Assembly: GCA_045605805.1 (NCBI GenBank)
Contig: JAZUQR010000008.1
Span: forward strand, 32,001-96,000
From: Alphaproteobacteria bacterium
GTDB lineage: Bacteria; Pseudomonadota; Alphaproteobacteria; CAAHEQ01; UBA3637
Reading direction: 5' to 3'
DNA length: 64,000 nucleotides
The translations under genes were made by a program, and so were the position numbers. A model generated the notes under the pieces. It was not told the origin of the DNA and searched no databases. It worked only from the letters and a program-made list of their open reading frames with translations. Below are positions 16,455 to 34,074 of the stretch, piece after piece (positions within the stretch are counted from its first letter, which is position 1; each line of letters opens with the position of its first letter).

Positions 16455-16566
16455 TTTTTGCCTTTTATATGAACCGGTGTATGCCGATTATGAGCATGAT
16501 ACCCCGGAAACGGTCCGTCAAATTGATAGAAACAATGTGATTTACGATGATTTATGTACAAATTAA
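16372..16566 (+). CDS. o-spanin-like (Rz1-like) lipoprotein
   Basis: Signal peptide ending in lipobox LSGC; overlaps the previous gene in another frame. Confidence 0.7.
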   Translation: MLKQLRIVGTAWLILSALSGCTTNINGDFCLLYEPVYADYEHDTPETVRQIDRNNVIYDDLCTN

Positions 16567-16663
16567 AAGATTTTGTTTGACTTTTCTTGCAAAAATGGCT
16601 CGAATCATAAGCGGAGGTGTCATGAACCTCTGTAATCTTAATATTAAGAAAGGAAAATTAAAC

Positions 16664-16936
16664 ATGAATAAAACTGAATTTGTTGAAGCAGTTGCTAAAG
16701 AAGCTAAAGCCTCTAAAGCCGCCGCAAATGAATTGGTAAACGCTGTTGTAGCTGTTGTTACAAAAGCATTGAAAAAAGGTGAATCAGTTCAAATCACTGG
16801 TTTCGGTACATTTGAAGTAGCAAAACGCGCCGCTCGTAAAGGTCGCAATCCTGCTACCGGTAAAGAAATCAAAATCCCGGCATCAAAAGCTCCTAAGTTC
16901 AAAGCCGGCGCAGTCTTGAAAAAAGCTGTAAAATAA
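16664..16936 (+). CDS. hup: DNA-binding protein HU
   Basis: MNKTEF...GFGTFEV.KRAARKGRNPATG.EIKIPA..PKFKAG signature; RBS AAGGA. Confidence 0.95.
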   Translation: MNKTEFVEAVAKEAKASKAAANELVNAVVAVVTKALKKGESVQITGFGTFEVAKRAARKGRNPATGKEIKIPASKAPKFKAGAVLKKAVK

Positions 16937-17274: not shown

Positions 17275-17715
17275 ATGGGCAAGATATGCTCGTTTTTTGG
17301 ACACAGTCATTTATATGGACAATCGGACCGTATTGCCCAACAATTAAGGCAAGTCATTATCAATTTAATCGGACAAGGTGTTGATACCTTTTACGTTGGC
17401 AATCATGGTGAGTTTGATATTTTTGCCAGCCGGGTAGCCTATGATCTGAAAAGTTTATATCCTAACATCCAAATCATTGTTGTTTTATGTTATCCAAATG
17501 AGTTGCAATACTTAAAATGTGCCTTCACGGATTTTTTGATGCCTCCGGAAATAGAAGCGGCCCCCAAACGGGCTTGCATTGTAACTCGCAATCATTGGGT
17601 TGCTGATAATTCTGACTACATCGTCTGCTTTATCAAATACAAAATGGGTGGAGCCTATGCGGCTATCGAATACGCCCAAAAGCACCATAAACAGATTATA
17701 GAGGTGAGAGCATGA
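17275..17715 (+). CDS. SLOG-superfamily protein (YspA/DUF1273-like)
   Basis: CSFFGH, FYVGNHGEFD, RNHWVADNSD and GGAYAAIEYA motifs. Confidence 0.75.
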   Translation: MGKICSFFGHSHLYGQSDRIAQQLRQVIINLIGQGVDTFYVGNHGEFDIFASRVAYDLKSLYPNIQIIVVLCYPNELQYLKCAFTDFLMPPEIEAAPKRACIVTRNHWVADNSDYIVCFIKYKMGGAYAAIEYAQKHHKQIIEVRA

Positions 17716-17750: not shown

Positions 17751-17779
17751 TTGACTTCGCAAGGGAAGACGGATAAAAT
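17751..17779 (+). promoter_or_regulatory. Sigma70-type promoter for the avd-TR-RT cassette
   Basis: TTGACT-17 bp-TAAAAT upstream of the avd-like gene. Confidence 0.6.
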
Positions 17780-17814: not shown

Positions 17815-18408
17815 ATGCGTAAAGATCAAGTCAGTCGTAATCAAAGAATTCATATGCCCAGGAAGGTAGAAAACGTTTCGGGGCAATTAATGCTACCTGT
17901 GGATGTTGCTTCTGTAAAGCAAGCATTTGCAACAGCTAATGACAAACGATTTAAATATGCTGATGCGCTGGATCAAGCAACCAAAGAAGATCCGGAATTG
18001 CATCAAATTTCAACAATTCCAAGCGATTCAAGCGAATTAATTGTTATAACGAAACTTAAAAAACTGGGGGCTTATATTCTAGCCGTGACGGTTAAATCGC
18101 CGGCCAAATTTAGACCTGTTTTTATCAATCGGATGCAAAATTACAGCTTGTCGGCTTTGGAAAATTTATTGAATGCTAATTTTATTCGGATGGATAGCCC
18201 CGAACATAAAGCCCAGCGAGAAAAGCATCAAACGGATGCACTCATTCAGTTAAAAATGGTGGCATATGTTGCAATGCTGTCGGAAAATGCAAAGTGTATT
18301 TTGATGAGGCAGTATAAACAAATATCAATTCAGGTTGGTGAAATTATTAACCTGATTATGGCATGGAAAAAAAGTGATGATAAACAATGGCAAACAAAAA
18401 AGTTTTGA
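17815..18408 (+). CDS. avd: DGR accessory variability determinant (Avd-like four-helix bundle) with N-terminal extension
   Basis: Basic helical C-terminal ~120 aa (SPAKFR...RMQN...LLNAN...EIINLIMAW); canonical position directly before TR and RT. Confidence 0.75.
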   Translation: MRKDQVSRNQRIHMPRKVENVSGQLMLPVDVASVKQAFATANDKRFKYADALDQATKEDPELHQISTIPSDSSELIVITKLKKLGAYILAVTVKSPAKFRPVFINRMQNYSLSALENLLNANFIRMDSPEHKAQREKHQTDALIQLKMVAYVAMLSENAKCILMRQYKQISIQVGEIINLIMAWKKSDDKQWQTKKF

Positions 18409-18447
18409 ATCCGAAAGGGTCAAAAGAGGGAAAGTTGATAATGCGTA

Positions 18448-18566
18448 TTGTGCCTCTTGGTCCGCGTCTTCAAATGAAAATGAAAACGTGCGTTGCGTCA
18501 ACTATAAGGGCGATAAGAACTGGAATAACACGAATAAACGTAAAATCTCGGCGCGCCCCGATTTGC
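18448..18566 (+). repeat. DGR template repeat (TR)
   Basis: 119-bp ungapped match to 20074-20192; all 23 mismatches are at adenines in this copy; AAT/AAC-rich; lies between avd and RT. Confidence 0.97.
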
Positions 18567-18821
18567 TTTTAAGGAGAACAACAAAATGTGGTCGGCAAAG
18601 ACACAGATCTCTGAAACAAGCCAGATATGTGGATTTTAGAAAAAATCCGCCCGTGCTTAAAGCAAAGGAAACTTTCTCTTTTCTAACCGCTGTCAGCTTA
18701 ATGCTCAGTGCGGTGGAAGAAGTAAAAATGCAAAGTTTGCGTTTTATGGGGTATCACATATATTGACACGTCTTGTTTTAATATATTATCGGGTACCCCT
18801 TTTTTACAACAAAAGAGAACG

Positions 18822-19871
18822 ATGAAGATAGAAGAGATATTTACATTTGAAAACTTGGTTGCGGCCCACAAAGCATGTCGGCTGAGTAAGCAACATAAAC
18901 GAGGAACAATCATGTTTGAAATTGAATTGGGGCGTAATGTCACCAATCTGGTCAAACAATTGACGGCTAGAACATATCGTTTAAGTCCTTACAGATCCTT
19001 TACCATTTATGATCCGAAGAAAAGATTAATTGAAGCGTTACCCTACAAAGACAGAGTGGTTTTAATGTGCTTTTGTCAGCATTCGGTAGCTCCCCGGCTA
19101 GAGAGACACCTGATTTATGACAATGCCGCTTCACGCAAAGAAAAAGGAACGCATTTTGCGGTAGAGAGATTGCATTCATTTATGCGAAAGCTGTACATCA
19201 AAAACAAAACAAATCGGATTTATTTTTTGAAATGCGATATCAGGAAATATTTTCAAAGCATCAATCATGAGATTTTATTGGAACTGTTGGCCAAGACCGG
19301 TTTTTCGGCTGATGAGATGTGGTTTTTAAGGATGATCATTGAATCACACGGTTCCATCGGGTTGCCTTTGGGTAATCAGACCAGCCAATGGTTTGCCTTG
19401 CTTTATTTGAACGGAATGGACAGGCTGATTAAAGAACGTCTGCGTATGTCCTGTTATGTGCGCTATATGGATGATTTTGTTATCCTAAGCGAAGATAAAG
19501 CCAAATTACAGCTGTGTAGAAAGCAAATTGATGAATATGTCAAAGGATTAAAGCTGTCCTTAAATCAAAAGACACAAATCGGGCTGTTATCGGATGGTAT
19601 TGATTTTTTGGGATTTAACCACAAATTATCGGCCACAGGTAAGATTATCAAATCTTTGCGTGGATCGGCCAAAAGCCGCCAAAGAAAATACCTGAAAACC
19701 ATCCGTCATTACTATTTGAATGATGTCCTGGATGATGAGTACCTAGACGTCCGTTTAGCCTCGTTTCGCGGGCATTTAAAGGGGACTAAGAACTGGATCC
19801 ATATCAGCAACCGCTTGGCTTCCTTAAAACACGAGAAACGCCGTACAAAAAAAATTGTTGCAGAACAATAA
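18822..19871 (+). CDS. DGR reverse transcriptase
   Basis: 349 aa; KCDIRKYF, GLPLGNQTSQ (DGR-type GxxxSQ), YVRYMDDF and GIDFLGF motifs; no maturase or endonuclease domain. Confidence 0.95.
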   Translation: MKIEEIFTFENLVAAHKACRLSKQHKRGTIMFEIELGRNVTNLVKQLTARTYRLSPYRSFTIYDPKKRLIEALPYKDRVVLMCFCQHSVAPRLERHLIYDNAASRKEKGTHFAVERLHSFMRKLYIKNKTNRIYFLKCDIRKYFQSINHEILLELLAKTGFSADEMWFLRMIIESHGSIGLPLGNQTSQWFALLYLNGMDRLIKERLRMSCYVRYMDDFVILSEDKAKLQLCRKQIDEYVKGLKLSLNQKTQIGLLSDGIDFLGFNHKLSATGKIIKSLRGSAKSRQRKYLKTIRHYYLNDVLDDEYLDVRLASFRGHLKGTKNWIHISNRLASLKHEKRRTKKIVAEQ

Positions 19872-19886
19872 ATTGTATGATATACT
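19858..19886 (+). promoter_or_regulatory. Sigma70-type promoter for the target operon
   Basis: TTGCAG-17 bp-TATACT with extended -10 TG; RBS AGGAGG at 19905. Confidence 0.55.
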
Positions 19887-19915
19887 GGGAGTATAAGCTA
19901 AATTAGGAGGCTCAT

Positions 19916-21865
19916 ATGGACTTTACGTTTTTGAAGGAAGATCAGATATGGGGCGATGGTGCCCTAGATGTAATGAAGCGTTATGGCACGAAGGTTGCGC
20001 CAACGGATCTGACAGTCATATTGGGTGGTTATATGACTGGTGGAGGTGATCGTACTTCTGAAGATGATCTAACTTGTGCCTCTTGGTCCGCGTCTTCAGA
20101 TGGACATGGAGGCGTGCGTTGCGTCCGCTGTGAGGGCGATGAGCACTGGGGTGGCACGCATGGACGTGTGATCTCGGCGCGCCCCGCTTTGCCTCCATCG
20201 GAGGCATCTAAAATCAGCCCGAGCGAAGCGAGAGCTATCGCTGGAATCCGCGTAGCGGAATATGGGGAATACCCGCAAACGGTCGCCGATGAACGCACCA
20301 GCGAGAAATTAGAAAGATTACATGATTCAAGATCTCTCCGTCCGACCGGAAAAAATTACACATTTGATTCAGTTGGTTTAACCGATTATGACACGTCTTT
20401 TAAGGCCACATCCTATCAGGAATATGAAATGGATGGCAAAAGGTATATCCGCGTTCCTGGACGGCCTGCTGACGACGATAGCAAACTATCTACTGGGGAA
20501 CAGGTAGAGTCCGGAAAACCCTACTGGGTTGAGGTCCAACCGATAGAATGGCTGATGGATAGAAGCGGCACAATGGTCGCCAAAAAATGCTTATTCGCCG
20601 GTATTCAATTTGATACAAAGAGCTCATATGACGGTGACTTCTCTAAAACGTCCATGAAACACTATTTGGACACTTATTTTGCCAAAGAAATGGAGCCAAC
20701 CGGACGTGTGGCCGCAAGAACGGTATCAAGAGACTATGAAGAAGAGCCGGAAAGAAAAGAACCCGTTAAAAAGAAAGAACCGACAGCCAGACAGAAGAAA
20801 TACGGGATCGAGGTATCTGATGAGCCTATGCCCGTCAAGGACCAAATAAACTTCTATATTCAAAACGGAATGAGCTTCATGCTCCATGGCCCGTCCGGTG
20901 TCGGTAAATCACAACGTGTGAAAGAAATTGATCCGGATTTGACCTCAATTACGCTGTGTAACGGAATTTTGCCTGAAGATGTTATCGGTAAAACAATCTA
21001 TCCAAACGGCGTGGGAGCCGATGGGGCCTCCGGTGGTGTTTGGGTGCCGCCTAAGTGGTACACGGATTTGTGCAGAAAATGCGAAACAGAACCGGACAAA
21101 CAGCACGTCTTATTTATCGATGAAGTGACCAATGCGCGTGAAACAACACAAAGTTTGATCTATCACGTAGCGTTGGAAAAATCAATTGCCCAGGGCGTTG
21201 GCAAACTGCCTAATAATGCTGTGGTCGTATTGGCCGGTAACAGCAAGGAAGAATCAGGAGCCGCTTATAACATGCCGGCCCCGTTGTTCAGACGTTTAAG
21301 CCATATTTACTTGGACTTGAATATTCAGGATTGGTTGGAATGGGGCTCGGAACACAGCAAGAGCCATCCGGAAGATCCGGATCGCTTAAACATCCATCCA
21401 TTAGTCGCCAGTTTTGTGGCAACCTACGGACGGCAAGTGTTCTATTCCGAGTATGATGAAGAAAACCCCGGCAAGTTTGCACTTGACCCACGAAAATGGG
21501 AAAAAGTATCAGATAAAATCTACGCTAATAAGGGTATGATGCGCCGTGAGATTTTGGAAGCTGATATCGGGCCTGAGTTGGCGGCCAGTTTGTTGTCTTA
21601 TGCTAAAAATCCGCCGCTATCCCTGGAAGAAGTGATTGAGGGCGAATATACCCGCGAGGATATTCCTACGGGACAGGATGCCCGTTTGGCGTTGGCGTTG
21701 AGTTTGCGTCATGCAACACCGAAACAAGTCGGGAAAGTACGTCAATTTGTTGAAACACAGTTAGGCGCAGAAAATCGTGCGATTTTTGACTCTGTTTGGG
21801 TGGGCAAGGATGATACACGCGCCATGCAGATTGCCACTTTACATAACTTAAAGGGAGGAAGATAA
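19916..21865 (+). CDS. DGR target: N-terminal variable CLec/DUF6273-like domain fused to a MoxR-type AAA+ ATPase
   Basis: VR at codons ~53-93; Walker A GPSGVGKS (aa ~325), Walker B LFIDE, LAGN, PAPLFRRL and DPRKWE. Confidence 0.88.
   Translation: MDFTFLKEDQIWGDGALDVMKRYGTKVAPTDLTVILGGYMTGGGDRTSEDDLTCASWSASSDGHGGVRCVRCEGDEHWGGTHGRVISARPALPPSEASKISPSEARAIAGIRVAEYGEYPQTVADERTSEKLERLHDSRSLRPTGKNYTFDSVGLTDYDTSFKATSYQEYEMDGKRYIRVPGRPADDDSKLSTGEQVESGKPYWVEVQPIEWLMDRSGTMVAKKCLFAGIQFDTKSSYDGDFSKTSMKHYLDTYFAKEMEPTGRVAARTVSRDYEEEPERKEPVKKKEPTARQKKYGIEVSDEPMPVKDQINFYIQNGMSFMLHGPSGVGKSQRVKEIDPDLTSITLCNGILPEDVIGKTIYPNGVGADGASGGVWVPPKWYTDLCRKCETEPDKQHVLFIDEVTNARETTQSLIYHVALEKSIAQGVGKLPNNAVVVLAGNSKEESGAAYNMPAPLFRRLSHIYLDLNIQDWLEWGSEHSKSHPEDPDRLNIHPLVASFVATYGRQVFYSEYDEENPGKFALDPRKWEKVSDKIYANKGMMRREILEADIGPELAASLLSYAKNPPLSLEEVIEGEYTREDIPTGQDARLALALSLRHATPKQVGKVRQFVETQLGAENRAIFDSVWVGKDDTRAMQIATLHNLKGGR
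20074..20192 (+). repeat. DGR variable repeat (VR)
   Basis: In-frame copy of TR with 17 A>G, 5 A>C and 1 A>T changes (counted by eye). Confidence 0.97.
20190..20206. other. Hairpin at the VR 3' end (candidate retrohoming recognition element)
   Basis: TGCCTCC-ATC-GGAGGCA, 7-bp perfect stem; absent after TR; preceded by the GC-only run CGGCGCGCCCCG. Confidence 0.65.
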
Positions 21866-21866
21866 A

Positions 21867-22331
21867 ATGTCATTAAAAGAAATACTCGAAAAAAGTCGGA
21901 AAAAACGCAAGAATGGCTTAGTCATTGGGCCTGATATAGGATGGCTTGGTCCGAAACCCGCCCGAACAAAAGCCGAAAAGATTAATCAAATCAAAACGGA
22001 ATTTATTGATGATAGAGCTTTGTTGATTGTCGGAGCTAAAGCATCCGATTTTGCAGAATATCCGAAGATAGAGGCTGATATCTCAGTTCAACGTTTGATT
22101 CAATATATGGATACGTTTGAAAAAACGGAAGATCATAAAGGTTTCTTGGTCATTGATGGGTTAGACAATATACCTGAATCTGAACAGGAAAAGTTTGTCC
22201 CCTTGTTAAAAGATCGGCAGATTTTATCCAGTAAGCTGCCAAATGAAGTTCAAATTTTGGTTCCTGTGAAAAAAATTGAAGACATTTCAAAAAGGATAAA
22301 ATCTCTGATATTTCCTCTGAAGGTGGTATAA
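21867..22331 (+). CDS. Small protein resembling a degenerate AAA+ core
   Basis: FLVIDGLD...EQ..FVPLLKDRQI...KLPNEVQILV parallels LFIDEVT...Q..IYHVALEKSI...KLPNNAVVVL of the upstream ATPase; no GKS/T. Confidence 0.55.
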   Translation: MSLKEILEKSRKKRKNGLVIGPDIGWLGPKPARTKAEKINQIKTEFIDDRALLIVGAKASDFAEYPKIEADISVQRLIQYMDTFEKTEDHKGFLVIDGLDNIPESEQEKFVPLLKDRQILSSKLPNEVQILVPVKKIEDISKRIKSLIFPLKVV

Positions 22332-24178
22332 TGATCAAAGATGTTTTAAAACAACAAGAAGAAATTCAATATATCAAGGAACAGGTTTTAGCCAAGTTTC
22401 CCTTACTTGGTGTGACGATGATGCCTTTGTCGGTTGTTCCTGATGATAGAATTGGGACAGCGGCCACGGATGGACATAAAATTATCTATTCTCCAAAGTT
22501 TTTTAACACCTTATCGGACGAACAAAAACAATTTGTCTTTGCGCATGAAGTGATGCATGTCGCTTTTAACCATATTTTGCGCAGTAAGGGTCGTAATCAA
22601 AGATTGTGGAATATCGCAACCGATTCTGTTATCAACCAAATCTTGAAAAATGAAAAATTGCCATTAGCGGAAGGTGGCGTTGATATTGCAGAAGCTGTCA
22701 ATCATTCGGCCGAGGAAATGTACGAAAAACTTTTGAAAAAGAAAGAACAGCGCGATCAGGAAAAACAGCAAAATCAAGAGCAAGATCAACAGCAACAACA
22801 ATCACAATCCGGTGGGACGGACCAGCCTCAGGATCAGGATGCACAAAATCAGCCTGAACAGGAACAACCTCAGGATCAAGACGGACAAAATCAATCCGGA
22901 CAAGACCAGCCTCAGGATCAAGACGGGCAAAAGGGACAAGAACAATCCGATCAACAATCAGACGGTTCAGAAAATCAAGATGAACAAAACAAAAATTCAT
23001 CAGAAGGCTCGGAAGGATCCGAACAACAGAAAGATCAATCTCAAGATGGTGATTCAAACTCTGAACAAAACAGTTCTTCCGGTCAGGGAGACGAAAATCA
23101 ATCTGATTCAAATTCCGAACAATCAAGCGACAATCAACAAGGATCCTCTAAACCTCAAAAAGGTGGTCAACGTTCGCAATCCGGTTCTTCCTCTCAATCA
23201 GAAGACACCGACTGGGATGACAGCAATATCGATTGGGACAATGAAGATGAACAAGTAGGCCACGATACACATGATATTTGGAAAGAAGCAGTTGAGCAAG
23301 CAGAACGTGAAGAACAACGAAAACAGGAAGCATCCAAAAAGAAAAGTTTATGGGATAAACTAAAAGAGAACATGGGGCAAAAAGAAGTTAAAGAGGATCA
23401 GCAAGGCGAACCTCAAGAAAAAGAAGCTCCTGTACCGCAAGATGAAAACATGGATGCGTATGAAAAAGGCTTCTTGGCAGAAAATCAAGAAAAACGTCAT
23501 GAGATGGCCGAACAGGTGCGCGAACAATTAAACAGGATAAAAGGAAGCCTCCGTCAATCAAATGATCATACCACAGTCGGGGATGTTGGGGAAACTCAAA
23601 CGCCGGTGGTTGATTGGAAAAAAATGCTTAAAAAATCTTTTGATGAAGAGCGTGATCGTTGGTCCTATCGTCGTTCCGGTTCTGAAAACGACTATATGGC
23701 TCGGGTAGAAGAATTGGAAGATGAAGGCCGTCCGGATACTGAGGTTATGTTGGATGTCAGCGGTTCTGTAAATATCCGCTTGTTACGTGAATTTTTAAGA
23801 CAACTTAAACCGTTACTTAAATCCTCTAAATTAAAGGTCGGTTGCTTTGATGAGTTTGTTTATGATTTTAAAGAAATAAAGACAAAAGAAGATATTGATC
23901 ATTTTCAAATTACGGCAACATCTCAATGGACTGAAAACTGGGATGCGGCTGTCCGGGCATTTTCTAAGAAAAAAGAAGTGAATAAAATTATTTTTACAGA
24001 CGGATATCCATGCCCAGGAACAATGCCTAAAGAAGATTTAAAGGGTAAGAATGTTATTTGGATAGTTTATGGAAATAAAGATTTTAATCCATGCTGTGGT
24101 AAAGTCATCCAGGTTTCTGAACGACAACTTCAGTCGTATATTCAGACGGCCGCTCCACTTTCTAGAGGTGGAAGATAA
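22331..24178 (+). CDS. HExxH metallopeptidase-like plus vWA domain protein (DUF2201-like MoxR partner)
   Basis: TAATDG, FAHEVMH and WNIATD.VIN N-domain; Q/D/S/E-rich linker; DVSGS MIDAS and FTDG motifs. Confidence 0.85.
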   Translation: MIKDVLKQQEEIQYIKEQVLAKFPLLGVTMMPLSVVPDDRIGTAATDGHKIIYSPKFFNTLSDEQKQFVFAHEVMHVAFNHILRSKGRNQRLWNIATDSVINQILKNEKLPLAEGGVDIAEAVNHSAEEMYEKLLKKKEQRDQEKQQNQEQDQQQQQSQSGGTDQPQDQDAQNQPEQEQPQDQDGQNQSGQDQPQDQDGQKGQEQSDQQSDGSENQDEQNKNSSEGSEGSEQQKDQSQDGDSNSEQNSSSGQGDENQSDSNSEQSSDNQQGSSKPQKGGQRSQSGSSSQSEDTDWDDSNIDWDNEDEQVGHDTHDIWKEAVEQAEREEQRKQEASKKKSLWDKLKENMGQKEVKEDQQGEPQEKEAPVPQDENMDAYEKGFLAENQEKRHEMAEQVREQLNRIKGSLRQSNDHTTVGDVGETQTPVVDWKKMLKKSFDEERDRWSYRRSGSENDYMARVEELEDEGRPDTEVMLDVSGSVNIRLLREFLRQLKPLLKSSKLKVGCFDEFVYDFKEIKTKEDIDHFQITATSQWTENWDAAVRAFSKKKEVNKIIFTDGYPCPGTMPKEDLKGKNVIWIVYGNKDFNPCCGKVIQVSERQLQSYIQTAAPLSRGGR

Positions 24179-24220: not shown

Positions 24221-26803
24221 TTAATATAAATTAGCCTCAAAAATTTGATAAAGGTCAAATTCTATACCGTCAACGCCTCTGATGAGGTCTATTTCATCTT
24301 CGGCGGCGACATCAATTCGGGCCTGATCTAAAAACAAGCCTTCTTCTTTTCGTTTAAGCTCTTTTTCAGCGACATTCAGCTGTTTTTGAATTCTTAATTC
24401 CGTGAGCCGGTCTGAAGCGGAGGATATTGTCTCACGAATTTTTTTAACCTCTTGCCTTGCTTCTGAAATGTTTTGCTCTAGGACAGATTTTTGGCGGCTG
24501 GCTTTTATTTTAATTAAATCAACATCCGTATCAAACTTTTTGGTATAATCATTTACATAACGTTCCTTAAGGTCGCGCTGGATGCGTGTATCTAACAAAT
24601 CTCGCGATGAACCGCCAGTCGTTTTTAGCCAATACGGATTCCTCTTTTCTTCAGCTATAAATTCACTAACCGGTTGATTGATAATTTTTTGGCATTCCTC
24701 ATCAGTCATGAGCCGTCCATCAGGTGTCGTACCAACCAAAATGTCATACTCTGATAAATACTGCCGGCGGCGATTACGTAAGACGATGTTATAGAACTTT
24801 ATATTGCATTTTTCTGTTGGCTCAACGGTTTTAATGTCCGCTTTGTCAGAGCATGATATTTCTTGTAAAATACCACGAACAAGCACGGATGTTAAAGTGA
24901 TGCGCCCTGCGACCGGCTTAAAATCTTTACTCATTCCATAAGTCCTGCGACCGGTGTATGGCACATTTCTTGTGCCGGTGTAATAGTAAAACATGTGCGG
25001 CAATTCTTCATCGTCCGGTAAAGTCAGCGTTTGATTGAAGTCATCGATCACATATTCCGGATGCTTTGTCGCAAAATAAAACTTCACAACTTCCCATAAA
25101 TCTTTATTCAAGAACTCCGCTTGTTCCTCTATGTATTTCGGCGAAACGGACACTTTCTCGGCAATATCTTTGGTAAAAGTGGTAAAGAGAGAACTTTCAG
25201 CCGCTGAAACAATGCGCTCATTCGGTTCGCGGTTTACTTCCAAGTTTGTTTCCATATCTGCGCGTATATCACTAAGCGTGCGGCGTTTTTGCAAAACATC
25301 TTCCAGTTTAACATCAAAATTACCGACAATATCGTCCGACATACCAAAAATGCCTTCAAATTGCAGGGTACGCTTGTTTATCAGCTCCAAAATACGGACA
25401 TCCGAGATATTTTCTTTGCTTAAAAGATTGATAACTAAAACATCGGATTGCTGGCCTTGTCGGTGGCAACGACAGATACGCTGTTCCATTTCCACGGCGT
25501 TATAAAGTAAATCATAGTTAACCACAACTGGACAATATTCAATATCCAAGCCTTTGGCCATAGCATCACTACAAATTAAAATTTGCAAATCTTTTTCTGC
25601 CCGAAAACGTGGCAGAGCATCATTTTCTGTATGCTTGATGACATTATATCCGGCGGTTTTAAGCAAATTTGCCAAAACTGGCACGGTGGCAAGATTATCC
25701 ACGAACACAATCGCTTTTTGTGTTTCTTTACGCAATTTTAAGTGTGCAAATGTCGTTTTAATAGCTTTTAGAAATTCTTCCATTTTGGCGGTTTGCGTAA
25801 TTTTTGCCGCCATATCGCGCATTGATTCCAAAATAACACGTTCATCGCCTTGTGTTCGCTCAATAGGTGCTTCCAACATTGTGGCAAATGCTTGTGGTGA
25901 TGAGGCCAAAATGTGGTAAAACATCAAAGTCAGTTGATAATTATCCATTTGCGGATAAGCCTGCTTTTCAGCTAAATTTAAGTATTTTTCGGTTAAATCA
26001 TAAATTTTCTTTTCATCATCTTTTGGTACGTAGTTCAAAACAATCGGTAAGCGACGTGTAAAGTTTACATACTGGCTCGCTTGGCTTTTAAGGGTACGAA
26101 AAGCGAATTGTGATACCCAATTTGATAGTTCTGGATAGTTTTCGGGCTTTCTGAAATACCGGCGATAAAAACTGTCAGGATCCGGCAGAACGCTTTCATC
26201 AATAAAATGTATCAATCCGTAAATATCCATGATACTCATTGTGATCGGCGTTGGCGTTAAAAGCAGTTTGAAAGCATCGCCGACAGCACCCTTAATGGTT
26301 GCAACTGATTTATTGTCCGGCTTAAAAAGAAAATCAGCCTCATCAAACACGGCCAAATCCCAACGAATGCTTTTGACTTTTTCTGCCTCACGGATAACAT
26401 CATCGTATGTGACAAGGCAAATACCTTTACTATCGGCAGTATATTCGGCCCATTTGATAACCGGCAAGGTGAACTCTTCATCAAGTTTTTGTTGCCATTG
26501 TGCCATAAGGTTTTGGGGTAAAACAACCAATATATGTTCTTTTCCCTCGTACCAACGTTGAACTACTACAAGCAAAGCCTCATAAGTTTTACCGAGTGAG
26601 CCTTCATCACATAAAATGCAACCTTTAATCAACCTAGATCGCAGGGCAAAACGGGCCGCGGCTATTTGATAAGGTAATACTTTAATTTTTGAAGAAGCAT
26701 AAACCGCCAGTAAATTATCGTCATCGCGAAAACTGGCCAATCGTCTGGCTTCCACCATAGCGGCAAATTCGGATACAAAACGATACGGCTTAGTCTCTTC
26801 CAT
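24221..26803 (-). CDS. SNF2/RapA-like helicase-family protein with degenerate motifs
   Basis: LPYQ, DEGSLGKT, FDEAD, LLTPTP, VVNYDL and EQRICRCHRQGQ; C-terminal coiled coil. Confidence 0.8.
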   Translation of the reverse strand: MEETKPYRFVSEFAAMVEARRLASFRDDDNLLAVYASSKIKVLPYQIAAARFALRSRLIKGCILCDEGSLGKTYEALLVVVQRWYEGKEHILVVLPQNLMAQWQQKLDEEFTLPVIKWAEYTADSKGICLVTYDDVIREAEKVKSIRWDLAVFDEADFLFKPDNKSVATIKGAVGDAFKLLLTPTPITMSIMDIYGLIHFIDESVLPDPDSFYRRYFRKPENYPELSNWVSQFAFRTLKSQASQYVNFTRRLPIVLNYVPKDDEKKIYDLTEKYLNLAEKQAYPQMDNYQLTLMFYHILASSPQAFATMLEAPIERTQGDERVILESMRDMAAKITQTAKMEEFLKAIKTTFAHLKLRKETQKAIVFVDNLATVPVLANLLKTAGYNVIKHTENDALPRFRAEKDLQILICSDAMAKGLDIEYCPVVVNYDLLYNAVEMEQRICRCHRQGQQSDVLVINLLSKENISDVRILELINKRTLQFEGIFGMSDDIVGNFDVKLEDVLQKRRTLSDIRADMETNLEVNREPNERIVSAAESSLFTTFTKDIAEKVSVSPKYIEEQAEFLNKDLWEVVKFYFATKHPEYVIDDFNQTLTLPDDEELPHMFYYYTGTRNVPYTGRRTYGMSKDFKPVAGRITLTSVLVRGILQEISCSDKADIKTVEPTEKCNIKFYNIVLRNRRRQYLSEYDILVGTTPDGRLMTDEECQKIINQPVSEFIAEEKRNPYWLKTTGGSSRDLLDTRIQRDLKERYVNDYTKKFDTDVDLIKIKASRQKSVLEQNISEARQEVKKIRETISSASDRLTELRIQKQLNVAEKELKRKEEGLFLDQARIDVAAEDEIDLIRGVDGIEFDLYQIFEANLY

Positions 26804-26806
26804 AAT

Positions 26807-29800
26807 TTACACCGTTTTCTTAAATTCCTGCCAATTTCTGACCGGCTGTTCGGAGTAGATAACATTATCAAGAGCTTTGAAGTGCTGTGCGCCGCAATGA
26901 ATCTTTTGTTGTTCTTCCGGTCGCAGGCCATAGAACGAATCAGTTCCTTTGGTTTCAAGCACGAAATAAAGTTTCTGTTCGCCATTTTTCTCTAAATATA
27001 CGGCCCAGTCCGGATTATAGGTTCCAATAGGTGTATCAATCTTAAACCGGCTTGGAATTTTAAAGAACATTTTAACGTCAGGATCCTCATCCAAAGCCAC
27101 GGCAAACGGCTTTTCAACCGTGCTACTGTCATAAATAACATAGTCATAAACGCTGTTTTTAACCGCGACAGCATTACGATCGAGGTTAGCAATCAATTCT
27201 TCACTCGAGAAAATCTCTTGCACGGCATATTCTTCGCCGGCCAATTTAATATACTTAATTCCATCAATGGCCAATGCATGGCGATTGCGCTGGATGATCT
27301 CCAAAACCTTTTCGTAAAAGTCTTGTGGGTTCTTCAAAAAGTCTCCGGCCCGGCTGCTTTCTTGAATGATTTTATTCACGGTCGAACGTTTCAGCAATGT
27401 TTTGGTAGAGATTAAACGCAAAATATCCGGCAGAACATCATAGCTCTTTTCCAGGTTTTGGGTAAACATCGCACCGGCTTGGGCGGTTACGCCTGACTTT
27501 TGAATATCAACCGAGGCTGTCTGACTGAGTAAACGGGCCGAAGCAATCTCCGGCATCTTACGAATATCCTTGATACTGTCGGCGATCAGTTTATCTAAAT
27601 CAAACTGGACCCGATAAGTGGTCTTTTGCTTAATTTTATTCCACAACTCCATAAATTCCGGTGATAATAGCGCACGTTTATTGAGTTTTACCGTTACATC
27701 CTTGGAAGCATCGCGGATGTTGAGCTTATTATCAGCCTTGTTCATGGACTGCAAAATTGCACGTTGCGCGGCTTTTGACCAACGCTCACTTAAATTGAGT
27801 GTACCGGCCGCAAGCTGTGCCTTCATGGTGTCTTTAATCTTGTTCTTGCTGTCAATAACCTTTTTATCTTTCAGCTCATCCATAATCGCGGCCGCTTCCT
27901 CATACGAGAAGGTCTTTTTCTCAACAACAGTTTCTTTATATGTTGTATTAGCAAGCGCGGCAACCGACACCGGCTTTGAAGTTTTGATCATATCTTGAAC
28001 ATGTGTTTTTACAGGTTCAGGCATGGGGATATTTTCGATTTTAATTTCTTCCGGCTTAACTTCCGGTTTAATGTAGCCACCATCATCAATTAAGCCATAT
28101 TTTTGTAAATCTTCAACAATAGCGGTGGCCTCGCTTTCGCTGACTCTACGTTCAACTTCTACTTCTTCATCGTAAGAATAGCCGACAAGCATATCCAACT
28201 CGAAAACGCCAAATTTAACACCGGTTTCATCTTCAATTTCTTTCTGTAATTTATCGGCAAACTCGGCAAAACTTTCGTTGGCGATAACGTGCAAAACATT
28301 GATGTTCTTATCCTCAATCCGTTCTCCGTCCTGATTAACGCAAAGTCTTAAGCCACGACCGATTTTTTGACGGCAGGTAAACAGCGATTTTTGCTCGATC
28401 AGCGTGCAAACTTGGAAGACATTCGGATTATCCCAACCTTCTTTTAAGGCAGAGTGCGAGAAAATAAAGCGGAGCGGACATTCAAACGACAACAGCCACT
28501 CTTTATCTTTCATGATGGTATTGTAGGTGTCGTCATCAGCCTGCGTATCGCCTTTGGTATCCTTATATTTACCTTTTTTATCTTGGGAGAAGTAACCGTT
28601 GTGTGCTTTGTTTACGTCTGTATCGAACTTGGTTTTTAGCTCAGCGTAACGTGGTTTATTGATCAGTTCGTTATAGCATTCTTCGAACATTTTGGCATAA
28701 ATACCTTTGCCGCCATCCTCAGTGCGGTATTTTTTAACCTCATCAATAAAGAACAGGGACAACACCTTAATTCCCATATCAAAATAGCGTAATTCCTTAT
28801 CTAAATGGGTTTTAATGGTCTGATAAATTTGCGCACGTTTCAAAACTTTTTCATCAACGCTACCGATGGCTTTACCCAGGGCAACATATTCCGAGTTTGC
28901 AAATTCCACACCCTCAAGGCCTGATGTACAATCAATCCCTGAAACAACATAGCCTTCATAAATTTTGCGATGGCCGGATTTGATAAACAGATCATCGTCC
29001 GGTTTAACCGTTATAACTTTACGCGTAATATGAGCGTTGTCGTCTTCCACATCAATTTCCAGTTTGGCCGAAAAGCCGTTGGCGTTTGAAACGTTCTTTA
29101 AGGCGATATAGGGTTTGTTTGAATCATTGATAACTGAATTTGAAATAACGCAAATCTGTTTTACTAATCCCAGTTGATACGCATCAACTGGTGTTAAACG
29201 ATAGACAAGATTCTGCTTTTCGCGGTGGGTAGCGGAATAACGCAACACGCACAGCGGATTAAGCATCGCGATGGCTTCCTTTGCCTTTGGCGTATTATCA
29301 ACACTTTGCGGTTCGTCAATAATCACAACCGGATTTGTGTCCTGAATATAGCGCATAGCGGTTTCGCCGTTCAGTTTATCTTGCTCTTGATTGATAATGT
29401 TTTCGGCCTTTTTGAAAGCATCGATGTTGATGATCATGATTTCAATGTTGCTGGAAGTTGCAAAGGCTCGCACATCAGAGAGCTTGGCCGAATTATAAAT
29501 AAAGTAGCGGTACGGCACACCGTCATATTGATTTTTGAAATACTCTTCCGTAACCTGAAACGACTTGTTTACACCTTCGCGAATTGCTACACTCGGTACA
29601 ACAATGATGAACTTTGTAAAACCGTAGCGGTGGTTAAGCTCCAAAATTGTTTTTGTATAAACGAAAGTTTTGCCGGTTCCGGTTTCCATTTCAATTGAAA
29701 GCGGCACCGCCTTTATGCCGTCAATGTTGGTTTGCGGCAGAGAATGAGCCTTTTGGATTGCATGAAGATTGTTGTTTATTGTCTCTTCATCCAACAGCAA

Positions 29801-29965
29801 CTTGTTACCGAACCCAAATTCATTTTGCAGGAAAGAAGCCTGCGCGGAGTTATCGGCGATTGAAAAAGTCATGTTGGCTTTTTCTTGGCCCTTGAATAAC
29901 TCAACCGCCGCATTCGTGGCATCAGTTTGAAATTCTTGATTCTTAAACTTTAGTTTCATGCTCAT
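26807..29965 (-). CDS. res: Type III restriction endonuclease subunit
   Basis: EMETGTGKT, IIDEPQ, LRYSATH, SALKEGWDNPNVFQ and QKIGRGLR motifs; nuclease YNPDW...ETKG. Confidence 0.93.
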   Translation of the reverse strand: MSMKLKFKNQEFQTDATNAAVELFKGQEKANMTFSIADNSAQASFLQNEFGFGNKLLLDEETINNNLHAIQKAHSLPQTNIDGIKAVPLSIEMETGTGKTFVYTKTILELNHRYGFTKFIIVVPSVAIREGVNKSFQVTEEYFKNQYDGVPYRYFIYNSAKLSDVRAFATSSNIEIMIINIDAFKKAENIINQEQDKLNGETAMRYIQDTNPVVIIDEPQSVDNTPKAKEAIAMLNPLCVLRYSATHREKQNLVYRLTPVDAYQLGLVKQICVISNSVINDSNKPYIALKNVSNANGFSAKLEIDVEDDNAHITRKVITVKPDDDLFIKSGHRKIYEGYVVSGIDCTSGLEGVEFANSEYVALGKAIGSVDEKVLKRAQIYQTIKTHLDKELRYFDMGIKVLSLFFIDEVKKYRTEDGGKGIYAKMFEECYNELINKPRYAELKTKFDTDVNKAHNGYFSQDKKGKYKDTKGDTQADDDTYNTIMKDKEWLLSFECPLRFIFSHSALKEGWDNPNVFQVCTLIEQKSLFTCRQKIGRGLRLCVNQDGERIEDKNINVLHVIANESFAEFADKLQKEIEDETGVKFGVFELDMLVGYSYDEEVEVERRVSESEATAIVEDLQKYGLIDDGGYIKPEVKPEEIKIENIPMPEPVKTHVQDMIKTSKPVSVAALANTTYKETVVEKKTFSYEEAAAIMDELKDKKVIDSKNKIKDTMKAQLAAGTLNLSERWSKAAQRAILQSMNKADNKLNIRDASKDVTVKLNKRALLSPEFMELWNKIKQKTTYRVQFDLDKLIADSIKDIRKMPEIASARLLSQTASVDIQKSGVTAQAGAMFTQNLEKSYDVLPDILRLISTKTLLKRSTVNKIIQESSRAGDFLKNPQDFYEKVLEIIQRNRHALAIDGIKYIKLAGEEYAVQEIFSSEELIANLDRNAVAVKNSVYDYVIYDSSTVEKPFAVALDEDPDVKMFFKIPSRFKIDTPIGTYNPDWAVYLEKNGEQKLYFVLETKGTDSFYGLRPEEQQKIHCGAQHFKALDNVIYSEQPVRNWQEFKKTV

Positions 29966-30657
29966 TTACCTATTTTATAAATTACATATTTAATTTCAGG
30001 ATTCGAAAACTGCTCCTTAAAGAAAGATTCCATTTTCTTGTCATTATTCACAACTTCTTTAGGCAATTGATTAAAATTTAATATTGTTTTATCCATCATG
30101 CCTACATCATTTATCAGAATACGATGACGCTTGTCTTCGTTCTTATTCCAGTAGAGGATCGCATACCTTATGGAGCCGGAAATAACCTCATTATCAAACG
30201 TAACGCTGTGCGTTGTAATGGTTTCCAACTTTTTCTTTTTTTTGATTTTACCAGTAAACGGGATAAAAATCGTCTTTTCGGGAGTTTGAACTCTAAAATA
30301 TATGTCTTTATGCATAGGGATTTCAGGCTCATAGGAGTATCTTTTCCCCATAATGTTATATGCATGAAAAGGTTCCAACAAAAATGGCTCATCAAAAGTT
30401 TTTAGTGTCATTAGGTATTTATTGTTGAATACGACAGAGATGGCCGTAATCGTTTTCGGAGAGAGCGTTTTATTGAATATCGTGCAATGTAAACCACTCC
30501 CTTCAAAAGAATTATGATTTTCTCCGAAAGATGTGATTTTAAGATTTTTTGAAAAGTGGTAAAGCCAAAAGCCATAAGCAGTTAAAACAAATATCCCCAA
30601 ATTACCAAGGATGGATGCTACTTTCTCAACAGTTTCCAAATTCAAAAAATCACACAT
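29962..30657 (-). CDS. Hypothetical protein with N-terminal TM helix, inserted between mod and res
   Basis: 231-aa AT-rich ORF, translationally coupled to res (ATGA-type overlap). Confidence 0.7.
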   Translation of the reverse strand: MCDFLNLETVEKVASILGNLGIFVLTAYGFWLYHFSKNLKITSFGENHNSFEGSGLHCTIFNKTLSPKTITAISVVFNNKYLMTLKTFDEPFLLEPFHAYNIMGKRYSYEPEIPMHKDIYFRVQTPEKTIFIPFTGKIKKKKKLETITTHSVTFDNEVISGSIRYAILYWNKNEDKRHRILINDVGMMDKTILNFNQLPKEVVNNDKKMESFFKEQFSNPEIKYVIYKIGK

Positions 30658-30666
30658 CGTCCACCT

Positions 30667-32935: not shown

Positions 32936-33211
32936 TTAATCGTTATTTCTCAATGGATTAAGGGTATTTTCCAACTCAATGTCAACCTCTCTTGAGCAGA
33001 TTAGAAACACAAGAGCAATAAAATTGTATGTAAAACATTTCAAATCAATGAGTTAAGAACGAAGCGGCACTTTTTGTTTGGCAGATATGGTTCGGTATAC
33101 TTTTAGGGTATAGGTATACTTTTTAAAGGGTAACAATCAAATTGACAGACACGGCGTGCAAAATTCCAAAAGCGGGAATAGTGGCTAGAACTGGGCTTTA
33201 AGAGGGTATAG

Positions 33212-33242
33212 AAAAAACGGACACTTTTAGGTATCCGTTTTT
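33212..33242 (-). terminator. Terminator downstream of tRNA-Pro
   Basis: ACGGATAC/GTGTCCGT stem with a T-run on the minus strand. Confidence 0.6.
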
Positions 33243-33254
33243 ATTTTTTAATAC

Positions 33255-33331
33255 TGGTCGGAGCGGCGGGATTTGAACCCACGACCACTTGCCCCCCAGA
33301 CAAGTGCGCTACCAGGCTGCGCTACGCTCCG
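33255..33331 (-). tRNA. tRNA-Pro(GGG)
   Basis: Reverse complement CGGAGCGTAGCGCAGCCTGGTAGCGC...CT GGG GG...GTTCAAATCC...CTCCGACCA. Confidence 0.95.
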
Positions 33332-33463
33332 ATAGCAACTATAATACTTATTTTTGTGGTAAATTGCAAGTACTTTTTTTAAGTGTTGCCTCTATTGTAT
33401 TAAAAAAATGTTGACAAAAAATCTTTTTCTGATATAATTTATTTGTTGTTTTAGGAGATAGAG

Positions 33464-33709
33464 ATGCGTCAAAACTTTCACTCTTGCAAAAGTAAAAGAA
33501 ATGAGAATCTTGTTGATTTAAGCCTTGTGCTTGCTTTGTTGGCTTTGGGGATGGTGTTATCTGGTTGGAGTACTGGTCAAGCCATATACAGAAGATATTC
33601 TGCTTCCAAAAATATTCAAGATTCTTGCCAAAAAAATCTTAAAAAAACAAGTTCTGATTCTTTGAAATCCGATTGTTTTTTGTATCATTATAAACATAAC
33701 CAAAAATAA
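33464..33709 (+). CDS. Hypothetical membrane protein
   Basis: RBS AGGAG, upstream TTGACA/TATAAT-like promoter, one TM segment. Confidence 0.5.
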   Translation: MRQNFHSCKSKRNENLVDLSLVLALLALGMVLSGWSTGQAIYRRYSASKNIQDSCQKNLKKTSSDSLKSDCFLYHYKHNQK

Positions 33710-33718
33710 GGAGAAAAT

Positions 33719-34033: not shown

Positions 34034-34074
34034 AAATACTTGACAAATAGTTAAAAAAGTGTTAATATCTTGTT

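Follow-up and report, generated by a model that had tools for sequence, protein, structure and literature searches.

The locus described here lies at the accessory end of a siphovirus-like prophage, with head, tail and lysis genes upstream. The host, an uncultured alphaproteobacterium of gut or rumen, has a genome of 1.2 Mb, assembled as a MAG of 31 contigs. All positions refer to the window, the whole stretch of 64,000 nucleotides that was analysed, and all features are on its forward strand. The operon runs in the same direction as the late structural and lysis genes and sits directly behind the tail and lysis genes, a placement also seen in the viral contig L056; the shared orientation fits a virion or late role as well as one in defence. 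It starts with an Avd-like accessory gene (17815..18408, 197 aa), directly upstream of which a sigma-70-like promoter match, TTGACT-17-TAAAAT (17751..17779), was found by consensus only (10/12), a weak indication given 27 such sites against 19.3 expected in shuffles. The Avd-like protein matches phrog_3206 (‘Avd protein of DGR’, 6.7e-11), and falls below the cut-offs of Pfam bAvd (1.1e-5, 26.3 bits against 40), spanning the whole model, and of NCBIfam NF033474 (Avd; 23.4 bits against 80, model positions 1-104 of 104). Between this gene and a reverse transcriptase (RT; 18822..19871, 349 aa) lies the template repeat (TR; 18448..18566), 119 bp long and containing 36 adenines. The RT matches RVT_1 (9.6e-20) and phrog_1423 (2.5e-93), with sub-threshold NCBIfam matches to other RT classes only, and its translation carries YMDD as well as GNQTSQ, a motif that we take to be typical of DGR RTs. 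The PHROG and Pfam matches and the translation agree with the earlier note, which had recognised an avd-like gene, a TR and an RT with both motifs, and the element is a genuine DGR of the active type (Avd-like gene, TR, RT). At eight related loci, an avd-like gene is likewise kept upstream of the RT.

The variable repeat (VR; 20074..20192, 119 bp) occupies codons 53-93 of the target ORF. In an ungapped comparison it differs from the TR at 23 positions, all of which are TR adenines (17 A>G, 5 A>C and 1 A>T); for 23 random sites of the 119 to all hit the 36 adenines, P is ~1e-15. The repeat limits are exact, extension at either end leading to immediate non-A mismatches. Of the 39 codons in the TR, 8 are AAY, and 22 of the 23 changes fall, in the target frame, on the first or second codon position. 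Together they alter 16 residues, including NENEN>DGHGG and NYK>RCE, without creating a stop codon. These coordinates, the adenine-only differences and the residue changes had all been read from the sequence in the earlier note, and the computed alignment and codon comparison bear them out, with no non-adenine mismatch in the 119 bp. The VR ends in a GC-rich, IMH-like stretch (20176-20186) that is common to TR and VR, beyond which the two sequences part ways. A hairpin with a 7-bp stem and a 3-nt loop (20190-20206) then follows the VR and is absent from the TR; 9 of 11 related VR copies then carry the same hairpin sequence, which presumably is the counterpart of the BPP-1 target-recognition hairpin. 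When the window protein is aligned with its 38 closest homologues, hypervariability falls on the TR-adenine codons (entropy maxima at codons 62-66, 71-73, 75-77, 79-83 and 85), and V67, V70, G74, R84 and S87-P90 form a fixed framework. In contigs from 4 runs of 4 studies, 21/21 variable VR positions among those listed are TR adenines, the position table covering the whole 501-nt stretch (141 further rows) with TR contigs mapped there too.

The target (19916..21865, 649 aa) consists of a variable module, a disordered linker and an AAA+ ATPase domain, for which the AF2 model gives a pLDDT >90 over residues 1-262, disorder over residues 263-287 and the AAA+ domain at residues 290-649. The VR and the ATPase share one reading frame in a single uninterrupted ORF, as had been proposed. 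The earlier note had weighed whether the two might lie in separate ORFs, or whether the fusion might be unique and decaying; it is intact, and the N-terminal module is present from the start in 91 of 120 homologues among those listed (611 homologues were found at E<=1e-3). A hydropathy scan found no transmembrane segments in the target. The step from a missing signal peptide to an intracellular protein is nevertheless weak, because the locus lies in a prophage and virion proteins lack signal peptides too; the scan shows only the absence of a membrane segment.

The ATPase domain (residues about 290-649; 20783..21865) contains Walker A (GPSGVGKS) and Walker B (LFIDE) motifs, and across 60 sequences G328, G330, K331, D402 and E403 do not vary. 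It matches phrog_1297 ATPase (1.8e-37), and its best Foldseek hits are NorQ (9qh4_A, E 2.4e-8, TMt 0.62) and CbbQ2 (6l1q_A, 5.1e-8), at 13-15% sequence identity. The earlier assignment to the MoxR type stands on these fold matches, on relatives that do exceed Pfam MoxR-type cut-offs (40.8, 46.1 and 24.6 bits) and on the invariant Walker residues, whereas the target itself stays below those cut-offs (AAA_5, 16.6 against 22 bits; AAA_3, 17.3 against 27). NorQ and CbbQ belong to the MoxR enzymes and act together with vWA proteins, and the vWA partner in NorQ-NorD and CbbQ-CbbO has a MIDAS, as it does here. Unlike the window proteins, these pairs serve one fixed client (nitric oxide reductase or Rubisco) and have no variable or peptidase domain.

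Two further genes, co-oriented with the target, complete the operon. The second (22331..24178) encodes a 615-aa protein with a metallopeptidase-like domain (DUF2201_N, 2.6e-29), an acidic and Q-rich linker and a vWA-like domain (DUF2201, 5.3e-7, 30.2 bits against a cut-off of 26.4), both matches passing their cut-offs. H72, E73 and H76 of the HExxH motif and D475, S477 and S479 of the MIDAS (DxSxS) are invariant in 13/13 sequences, which agrees with the HExxH-vWA gene recognised earlier. The small ORF in between (21867..22331, 154 aa) matches no family above cut-off; weak hits are NPHP3_N (0.003) and, in PADLOC 2.0, which leaves the target and the DUF2201 protein unmatched, Avs1b at noise level (5.5e-4, 15.4 bits). 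Complex modelling predicts that the small ORF product binds the ATPase: the model reaches an ipSAE of 0.62 against 0.00 for the best control, with contacts to the ATPase chain only, at least 64% of contacts in common between runs and a partner pLDDT of at least 79. Among solved complexes 58 of 80 attain this ipSAE mark, and among mismatched pairs 2 of 110, a calibration that is roughly valid, own alignments having been used.

What, then, is the module that carries the VR? Residues 1-262 (19916..20701) are modelled with a pLDDT of 97.1 and a pTM of 0.93 and belong to a family of 1543 representative clusters. No Pfam model matches the module at E<=10, and DUF6273 (PF19789) in particular finds no match at that threshold in the module and none in the whole genome; a weak DUF6273 match appears in 2 of 84 family members (1.9e-4). 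By these profile searches, the module family is without Pfam annotation. With hhalign, module residues 2-92 align to DUF6273 positions 75-176 (E 2.7e-6), and residues 219-255 to positions 5-39 (E 0.031). On this profile evidence, the module is a DUF6273-like domain: its VR half is a homologue of the C-terminal half of DUF6273, the half in which that domain bears its VR. The module appears to be circularly permuted, the two halves being swapped with the VR half first. Such a swap would explain the ‘N-terminal’ VR of the target. That position, which the earlier note had singled out as atypical, is real, but less unusual than it appears, as the VR is located where DUF6273 targets have it, going by the description of these in PMC11792537. 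The available accounts of DUF6273 domains describe them as DGR targets of gut phages and presumed receptor binders, with a VR that likewise ends in an ...RPAL motif (PMC10743442, PMC11792537). In those accounts, which include the tentaclins, the halves are in the opposite order to what appears in our module, and the domain is followed by Ig-like domains or by nothing, whereas here an AAA+ ATPase follows. Tentaclins have an N-terminal CLec/DUF6273 domain and then Ig-like domains with a C-terminal consensus; a CLec-like fold is not confirmed for the window module. The adaptable sites would amount to about 16 codons in loops between three short beta-strands.

The order Avd-TR-RT-fusion-small ORF-metallopeptidase/vWA recurs in divergent loci, including L056, and a conserved RT-target-small ORF-vWA synteny, as the earlier note had envisaged, is found in genomes and metagenomes alike. 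Both the small ORF and the DUF2201 gene lie behind the target at 8/8 genome loci and at 10 metagenome loci with enough downstream DNA, L036 being the only exception. Independent TR/VR pairs in divergent loci mismatch at adenines in 14/14 (L042), 12/13 (L008) and 11/14 cases (L056, the remaining 3 within the last 12 nt). Conserved in many gut metagenomes, this fusion architecture hints at a protein machine whose target can be programmed, and its being common in gut and rumen metagenomes makes it open to study.

A search of the host’s own genome with the TR finds four places only. Two of these are further VR copies, not mentioned in the earlier note, in the DNA of stand-alone paralogues of the module at contig ends that adjoin host housekeeping genes. 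One (C7:99-217) differs from the TR at adenines only (15/15), and the other (C1:8-126) at 18/19, the exception being one T>G. Since the repeat end is common to the paralogues and, in most copies, so is the hairpin, the window TR would also be able to write into them. Stand-alone module paralogues are common in host genomes without a close RT, and neither TR nor RT was found, with the queries used, in five genomes that have VR-bearing genes, these being MAGs that may be incomplete. So does the prophage DGR edit host genes in trans, given adenine-only VR copies in host paralogues where no RT was found?

We consider it probable, at roughly 60%, that the operon encodes a DGR-programmable adaptor on a MoxR/vWA-peptidase machine carried by the prophage. 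The RT would copy the TR with adenine-specific errors and write the copy into the VR, thereby re-randomising about 16 codons, and an ATPase hexamer would carry six binding heads, each open to re-programming. Were the operon to work like NorQ-NorD and CbbQ-CbbO, a bound client would be remodelled by the ATPase and its vWA partner, and may also be cut by the metallopeptidase domain of the latter. The role would most likely be the recognition of a fast-evolving cytoplasmic protein in phage-host or phage-phage conflict, be it superinfection defence or counter-defence. The genomic context counts in favour, with a DrmD-like SNF2 helicase and type III restriction-modification genes as neighbours of the operon. 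In one homologue, ankyrin repeats take the place of the module ahead of an ATPase that is 84% identical, a swap that, as far as sequence comparison goes, counts in favour of the adaptor. To our knowledge, DGR targets are nearly always passive binders such as tail fibres, surface proteins and sensors; here, a hypervariable domain is joined to an energy-consuming remodelling enzyme with a protease-bearing partner. If true, this would be a natural “programmable unfoldase/protease adaptor”, the 262-aa module offering a compact, well-modelled scaffold (pLDDT 97) that tolerates about 16 randomised positions.

DGR-linked MoxR-vWA conflict systems have already been described, but in those the VR is carried by the vWA protein or by a distinct target gene. 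As far as their published descriptions extend here, the vWA-MoxR-VMAP ternary systems of cyanobacteria, gammaproteobacteria and Thiohalocapsa (Kaur et al. 2020, PMC7159879; Dore et al. 2024, PMC10907252) resemble the window in the genetic coupling of a DGR with an ATPase of the MoxR class and with a vWA protein that comes with a peptidase component, and in having a predicted cytoplasmic target whose diversified domain is read as a sensor. By the same accounts, their VRs lie in C-terminal CLec/FGS domains and their MoxR is separate and invariant, whereas here the VR domain is on the MoxR N-terminus; our vWA protein has, in place of a CLec, an N-terminal HExxH domain of the DUF2201 type. Furthermore, the third component there is a VMAP, and here a 154-aa protein without known family, which is shorter than the described VMAPs, with their peptidase, cyclase or EAD domains, and does not resemble them. 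Finally, the ternary systems are on the chromosome of a multicellular bacterium, and ours belongs to the prophage of a gut bacterium of unicellular type with a 1.2-Mb genome. If the adaptor reading is true, this would widen the link between DGRs and NTPase conflict systems beyond multicellular bacteria, to the phages of gut bacteria with small genomes. New here are the Pfam-unannotated module family, the VR copies in stand-alone paralogues, the DUF6273 homology of the VR half and the small ORF as a predicted ATPase binder. The two-gene core itself is also known from jumbo and T4-like phages as a ‘chaperone-cochaperone’ pair of a MoxR AAA+ ATPase and a metallopeptidase-vWA protein, phage-borne as here (phrog_1297, phrog_1314); the passages of Iyer et al. 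2021 (PMC7824862) on these pairs report no DGR alongside. In line with this, the ATPase part of the target has its counterpart in 406 phage records at <60% identity, several of which bear the name ‘MoxR ATPase’, but these cover query residues of about 300-600 only, without the variable N-terminal module.

More tentatively, the phage DGR may program both its own six-headed machine and the host paralogues, so that phage and host would share a hypervariable repertoire: an anticipatory immune-like or counter-immune system at the protein level, with recognition coupled to ATP-driven remodelling or proteolysis. We regard this wider scheme as possible rather than probable.

An alternative that we think unlikely, yet worth serious attention, is that the DGR switches phage tropism. 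The module would then be a receptor-binding head on or for the virion, with the MoxR ATPase, small ORF and peptidase/vWA protein as morphogenesis chaperones, the fusion either coupling assembly to the head or being itself a virion protein. Phage DGRs usually diversify receptor-binding proteins, and receptor binding is the presumed role of the DUF6273 targets of gut phages according to PMC10743442 and PMC11792537. Moreover, the text of PMC7824862 on phage MoxR and metallopeptidase-vWA pairs proposes them as virion-assembly chaperones, with Acidianus two-tailed virus as precedent. The same-strand position just past the tail and lysis genes, here and in L056, points the same way, and the own-genome TR search found no further VR-bearing gene among the prophage structural genes. 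However, an AAA+ hexamer with a 25-residue disordered linker to the head is no known tail-fibre design, and Pfam profiles find no Ig, Fn3 or fibre domains in the target. The other VR copies lie in host housekeeping neighbourhoods, distant from virion genes; the module or fusion occurs in 29 of 80 host genomes, with a close RT in only 4 of 80; and no module relative was found in 50,697 deposited phage genomes.

Less likely still, the adaptor machine may be a relic: the retroelement would be a fossil or near-fossil, the VR differences old, and the fusion now a phage MoxR ATPase of the usual kind whose N-terminal domain is fixed, homologue variation reflecting old events and paralogue recombination. 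Five fusion loci have no RT within 6-8 kb upstream, and two more (L006, L010) have RT remnants only; together with the five genomes in which neither TR nor RT was found, this means that diversification is not obligatory for the family. At L004, the VR aligns only with a shift and the target is in two overlapping tblastn pieces, and C7 agrees with the prophage copy throughout its first 122 nt, which suggests recombination or assembly mixing. All 24 sequencing runs found, of DNA or of unstated kind, supply contigs only, and these cannot show live heterogeneity within a population. Conversely, no component is damaged in the window (Avd, RT, TR, IMH-like end, hairpin and target), where 22 of 23 changes, all stop-free, fall on codon positions 1 or 2. 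Four other MAGs (L004 among them) have a TR that equals that of the window or is one base off, and their VRs all differ. Unitigs end at the VR edges in 3 of 4 runs, and in run X2 three VR unitigs have depths (3.0, 2.4 and 3.5) that sum to about the flank depth of 9.6, both being patterns that paralogues could cause as well.

The chance that the repeats are a coincidence or an assembly artefact is negligible: the MAG being in 31 contigs is a general caveat only, and the adenine-only TR/VR pattern, the TRs shared between MAGs, the independent TR/VR pairs and the same architecture in independent assemblies of many studies refute it for practical purposes.

The template repeat (TR) of the DGR occupies 18448-18566 on the plus strand, 119 bp with 36 adenines, and is repeated on the same strand by the variable repeat (VR) at 20074-20192, which covers codons 53-93 of a 649-aa target protein. 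In an ungapped comparison the two repeats differ at 23 positions, all 23 of which are adenines in the TR (17 A>G, 5 A>C and 1 A>T), and the probability that 23 randomly placed differences would fall on adenines alone is about 1e-15. The earlier note had proposed these limits, differences confined to adenines, 16 changed residues, and a VR joined to an ATPase in one protein. Each of these claims holds. Non-adenine mismatches number zero inside the repeat and appear once it is widened by a few bases on either side, from which we conclude that its limits had been drawn correctly; codon comparison of TR and VR returns the same 16 altered residues; and both VR and ATPase lie inside the single open reading frame at 19916-21865 (plus strand). 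Of the 23 changes, 22 affect codon positions 1 or 2 and none has given rise to a stop codon; AAY codons account for 8 of the 39 in the TR. A GC-rich stretch closes the repeat in both TR and VR. Directly 3' of the VR lies a DNA hairpin (20190-20206, plus strand) with a 7-bp stem and a 3-nt loop, which is absent after the TR and recurs 3' of 9 out of 11 related VR copies; hairpins of this type mark DGR targets in phage BPP-1. The remaining components are an Avd-like gene (17815-18408, plus strand; PHROG Avd family, 6.7e-11), whose product matches the Avd models of Pfam and NCBIfam over their full length with scores under their cut-offs, and a reverse transcriptase (RT; 18822-19871, plus strand; RVT_1 9.6e-20, phrog_1423 2.5e-93) with intact GNQTSQ and YMDD motifs. 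A weak sigma-70-like promoter match lies at 17751-17779, shortly 5' of the Avd-like gene.

An AlphaFold2 model of the target (60 homologues) predicts residues 1-262, the variable module, with confidence (pLDDT >90); the linker at 263-287 is disordered, and the AAA+ domain spans 290-649. Searches of Pfam, NCBIfam and PADLOC gave nothing usable for the module, the target or the small downstream ORF, the AAA_5 score of the target being 16.6 bits against a Pfam cut-off of 22, which its relatives do pass. A sequence search of the PDB returned no match for the ATPase half or for the downstream DUF2201 protein. In fold the ATPase model is closest to NorQ (9qh4_A, E 2.4e-8, TMt 0.62) and to CbbQ2 (6l1q_A), a Rubisco activase; these two MoxR ATPases act with vWA partners. 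Furthermore, the Walker A (G328, G330, K331) and Walker B (D402, E403) residues are invariant among 60 sequences. As such, fold matches, relatives above the cut-off and invariant Walker residues point to a MoxR-class enzyme.

Could the fusion of module and ATPase be unique and decaying, as the earlier note had considered? It is not: at E<=1e-3 the target has 611 matching proteins, and among the 120 listed homologues 91 carry the module from its start, 21 start inside it and 8 are without it. Several of the 21 begin exactly after the VR, which is expected if contigs break at the VR. In one of the eight (P0074), ankyrin repeats precede the ATPase (84% identical), an arrangement that fits an exchangeable adaptor position ahead of it. 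The order of RT, target, small ORF and vWA gene, for which the earlier note had suggested searching homologous loci, is also conserved across genome and metagenome loci, some of which are without a nearby RT. All 8 genome loci, and 10 metagenome loci that extend far enough downstream, have the small ORF and then the DUF2201 gene after the target, the exception being L036, where another module gene lies 3' of the target. This further gene (L036:1718-2491) replaces the usual next gene after the ATPase gene on a short metagenome contig, and on a second such contig one does so downstream of the small ORF (L039:2409-2555). Avd and RT genes precede the target in loci L001 (the same contig as L032), L002, L004, L005, L008, L033, L034 and L042; no RT was found within 6-8 kb in L003, L007, L009, L037 and L040, and L006 and L010 hold RT fragments only.

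Several divergent cassettes have TR/VR pairs of their own, with 14 of 14 mismatches at adenines in L042 (110 bp), 12 of 13 in L008 (114 bp) and 11 of 14 in L056 (83 bp), where the other three fall in the last 12 nt. The last of these is a viral contig from IMG/VR with a module that is only 37% identical; it was the one locus found when viral contigs were scanned with the module alignment, the full target giving no match there, and the module had no match in GenBank phages. From these divergent cassettes and the viral locus we conclude that the six-gene arrangement is old and phage-borne. Two loci depart from the intact form. In L009 (genome G054, C1:500252-501888) module residues ~105-186 are absent and two frames, of 126 and 447 aa, divide the gene, and this copy, with no RT found nearby, has likely decayed. 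In L010 a truncated copy (6756-7637) comprises the module and the first part of the linker before a stop, with an RT fragment nearby on the opposite strand; it could show how a stand-alone module gene originates from a decayed cassette.

Hypervariability of the target is confined to the codons that the TR predicts. When the window protein is aligned with its 38 closest homologues, the columns of more than 2.8 bits entropy are those of codons 62-64, 66, 71-73, 75, 77, 79-80, 82-83 and 85, which are the TR-adenine codons, and V67, V70, G74, R84 and S87-P90 are nearly invariant in the same 39 proteins. The TRs of four other MAGs match this one exactly or with a single base changed, and every VR differs, with 16-24 changes at adenines; the VR of L004 aligns only after a shift and may be damaged. 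A second hypervariable patch, with entropy of up to 2.8 bits among close homologues, lies upstream of the VR at codons 39-45 (20030-20050), where the TR contains nothing similar and does not account for the variation. A second TR for it was sought, and the sequence upstream of the TR shares no similarity with that part of the gene; the patch may be a selected neighbouring loop, or the result of recombination.

A search of the window's own genome with the TR retrieved two more VR copies, both at contig ends and both in module-only coding DNA adjoining host housekeeping genes. The copy at C7:99-217 has 15 mismatches to the TR, all 15 at adenines, and that at C1:8-126 has 18 at adenines and one T>G. 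The C7 copy is 100% identical to the prophage copy over the first 122 nt and ~94% after the VR. Assemblies of DGR targets tend to break at the VR. The two contigs (C1:1-290 and C7:1-954 of G000) end inside or beside their VR copies, with a mutual overlap that differs in the VR and in codons 39-45, and the end of C1 and start of C7 represent either one stand-alone gene or two. In Logan contigs from four runs of four studies, breaks occur at VR edges in three of the four runs, and among the variable VR positions listed 21 out of 21 are TR adenines, TR contigs also being aligned there; no RNA run contains the stretch. Stand-alone paralogues in related genomes likewise sit in housekeeping neighbourhoods, and most of the differences between their VR regions and this TR (16-20 of 21-28; binomial P 4.5e-5 to 4.8e-9) are at adenines. 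With the queries used, TR and RT were not found in five genomes holding VR-bearing genes, these being MAGs that are possibly incomplete. Of 80 species genomes surveyed in the host's order, 29 contain the module or the fusion and only 4 a close RT (at least 61% identity).

The module belongs to a large family (1543 representative clusters at E<=1e-3, 323 at E<=1e-30), mostly of stand-alone proteins of 260-400 aa. Its profile found only noise in the PDB, the best match being 28 residues of a hemopexin-fold protein at 0.0024. Several weak leads pointed to DUF6273: matches in 2 out of 84 family members at 1.9e-4, rank 5 in the ESM Atlas at 0.88 (a lead only, the Atlas's recognition value lying under its own reliability mark), and a best BFVD match at E 0.053. 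The DUF6273 model itself had no match in the window's own genome or in that of locus L014. Because of these leads we compared profiles, using 20 DUF6273 domains taken from Clostridia genomes. Module residues 2-92, which bear the VR, align with DUF6273 positions 75-176 (E 2.7e-6, probability 88.6%), and residues 219-255 align weakly with positions 5-39 (E 0.031, probability 1.6%). The former alignment is solid and the latter no more than a hint; together they suggest that the module is a circularly permuted DUF6273-like domain, and a swap of its halves would explain why the VR lies near the N-terminus of the target. The VR occupies the position at which gut-phage DUF6273 targets are described as bearing theirs, the C-terminal end of the DUF6273 domain (PMC11792537). 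A published description likens DUF6273 to C-type lectins, its VR making up a beta-hairpin at the surface (PMC10743442). In the secondary-structure string of the module model, the variable codons are predicted to fall in turns between three short strands (56-61, 67-70 and 76-79). In G049, a genome of the host's family, 11 matches cover module residues ~90-265 only, in ORFs of 360-440 aa of which several are tandem (C47, C77, C39, C2); they represent an expansion of paralogues that lack the VR half.

In the 615-aa protein encoded downstream, a long linker rich in acidic residues and Q joins a metallopeptidase-like DUF2201_N domain (2.6e-29) to a VWA-like DUF2201 domain that scores above cut-off. 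The HExxH (H72, E73, H76) and MIDAS (D475, S477, S479) residues of this protein are invariant in 13 sequences. Between it and the target, the small ORF (21867-22331) encodes a 154-aa protein with a conserved core hhhhxGLD...LLKDR and no family match in Pfam, NCBIfam or PADLOC. Its only family hints are to a STAND NTPase core (NPHP3_N 0.003, Avs1b 5.5e-4); the hhhhxGLD motif resembles a Walker B strand and there is no Walker A, so that the protein may be a degenerate P-loop-like domain. When ATPase domain, vWA domain and small protein were modelled as a complex with the small protein as scored partner, its median score was 0.62, against 0.00 for the best of three controls; the calibrated mark is reached by 58 of 80 solved complexes and 2 of 110 mismatched pairs, a rate that is approximate here owing to user-supplied alignments. 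The runs have at least 64% of contacts in common, with partner pLDDT of at least 79, and the confident small-protein contacts are all predicted with the ATPase chain (residues 343-352, 379-384, 402-406 and 533-546). The predicted interface sets ATPase residues 343-352 and 533-546 against residues 16-29 and 108-121 of the small protein. The model thus supports, and does not show, that the small protein binds the ATPase. The three operon proteins are free of hydrophobic segments, their highest Kyte-Doolittle mean over 19 residues being 1.57.

Directly after the operon lies a defence-type island on the minus strand (24221-32532), encoding a DrmD-like SNF2 helicase (1.3e-76), a type III restriction enzyme (9.8e-297), a 231-aa ORF without family and a type III methyltransferase (1.6e-193). 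The helicase of L005 is 65% identical, indicating that the island varies between otherwise similar prophages. So what might such an operon do? Mutagenic retrohoming is probably ongoing, and the ATPase would assemble as a hexamer bearing six variable heads. By analogy with NorQ-NorD and CbbQ-CbbO, it would work with the vWA partner, and a client, presumably a fast-evolving cytoplasmic protein, would be cut by the HExxH domain. We favour a role in conflict on three grounds: the operon occupies an accessory position beside genes for restriction and a helicase, its N-terminal adaptor appears exchangeable, and DGR-linked MoxR-vWA systems provide a precedent. The operon runs in the same direction as the late genes, and phage DGRs usually diversify receptor-binding proteins; both points keep a role in the virion or in receptor binding as a live, if rather unlikely, alternative.

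In DGR-coupled vWA-MoxR-VMAP systems, the VR has been described in CLec domains at the C-terminus of either the vWA protein or the product of a separate target gene (PMC7159879, PMC10907252), whereas here it lies on the MoxR ATPase. Phage pairs of MoxR and metallopeptidase-vWA proteins have been described without a DGR and proposed as virion-assembly aids (PMC7824862), and DUF6273 DGR targets have been described in gut phages, some with VRs near the 5' end (PMC10743442, PMC11792537). The main text of a global DGR survey leaves ATPases unmentioned (PMC8144416). No paper in the literature searched describes a MoxR ATPase bearing a VR, and supplementary target catalogues such as those of PMC8144416 may list one. 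The architecture is real, conserved and, as far as searched, undescribed; it joins three known kinds and is not a categorically new system.

Upstream of the DGR, the prophage encodes a head maturation protease, major head protein, tape measure, minor tail proteins, a J-like tail protein and an endolysin. The DGR is separated from the lysis genes by genes for an HU/IHF-like protein with a 39-residue N-terminal extension (16547-16936; HU-beta 5.8e-28) and a SLOG/YpsA-like protein (17275-17715; 6e-6, below cut-off), both of which are kept in L001, L002, L004 and L005. After the island follows a tRNA-Pro (ggg) at 33255-33331, which may be the prophage attachment site. Within 33000-34500, GC skew jumps at this tRNA from ~0 to +0.3 and gene content turns host-like, and the strongly skewed DNA beyond it looks like host chromosome. 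The host, with a genome of 1.21 Mb (98.85% complete), is, judged from related loci, an uncultured gut or rumen alphaproteobacterium.
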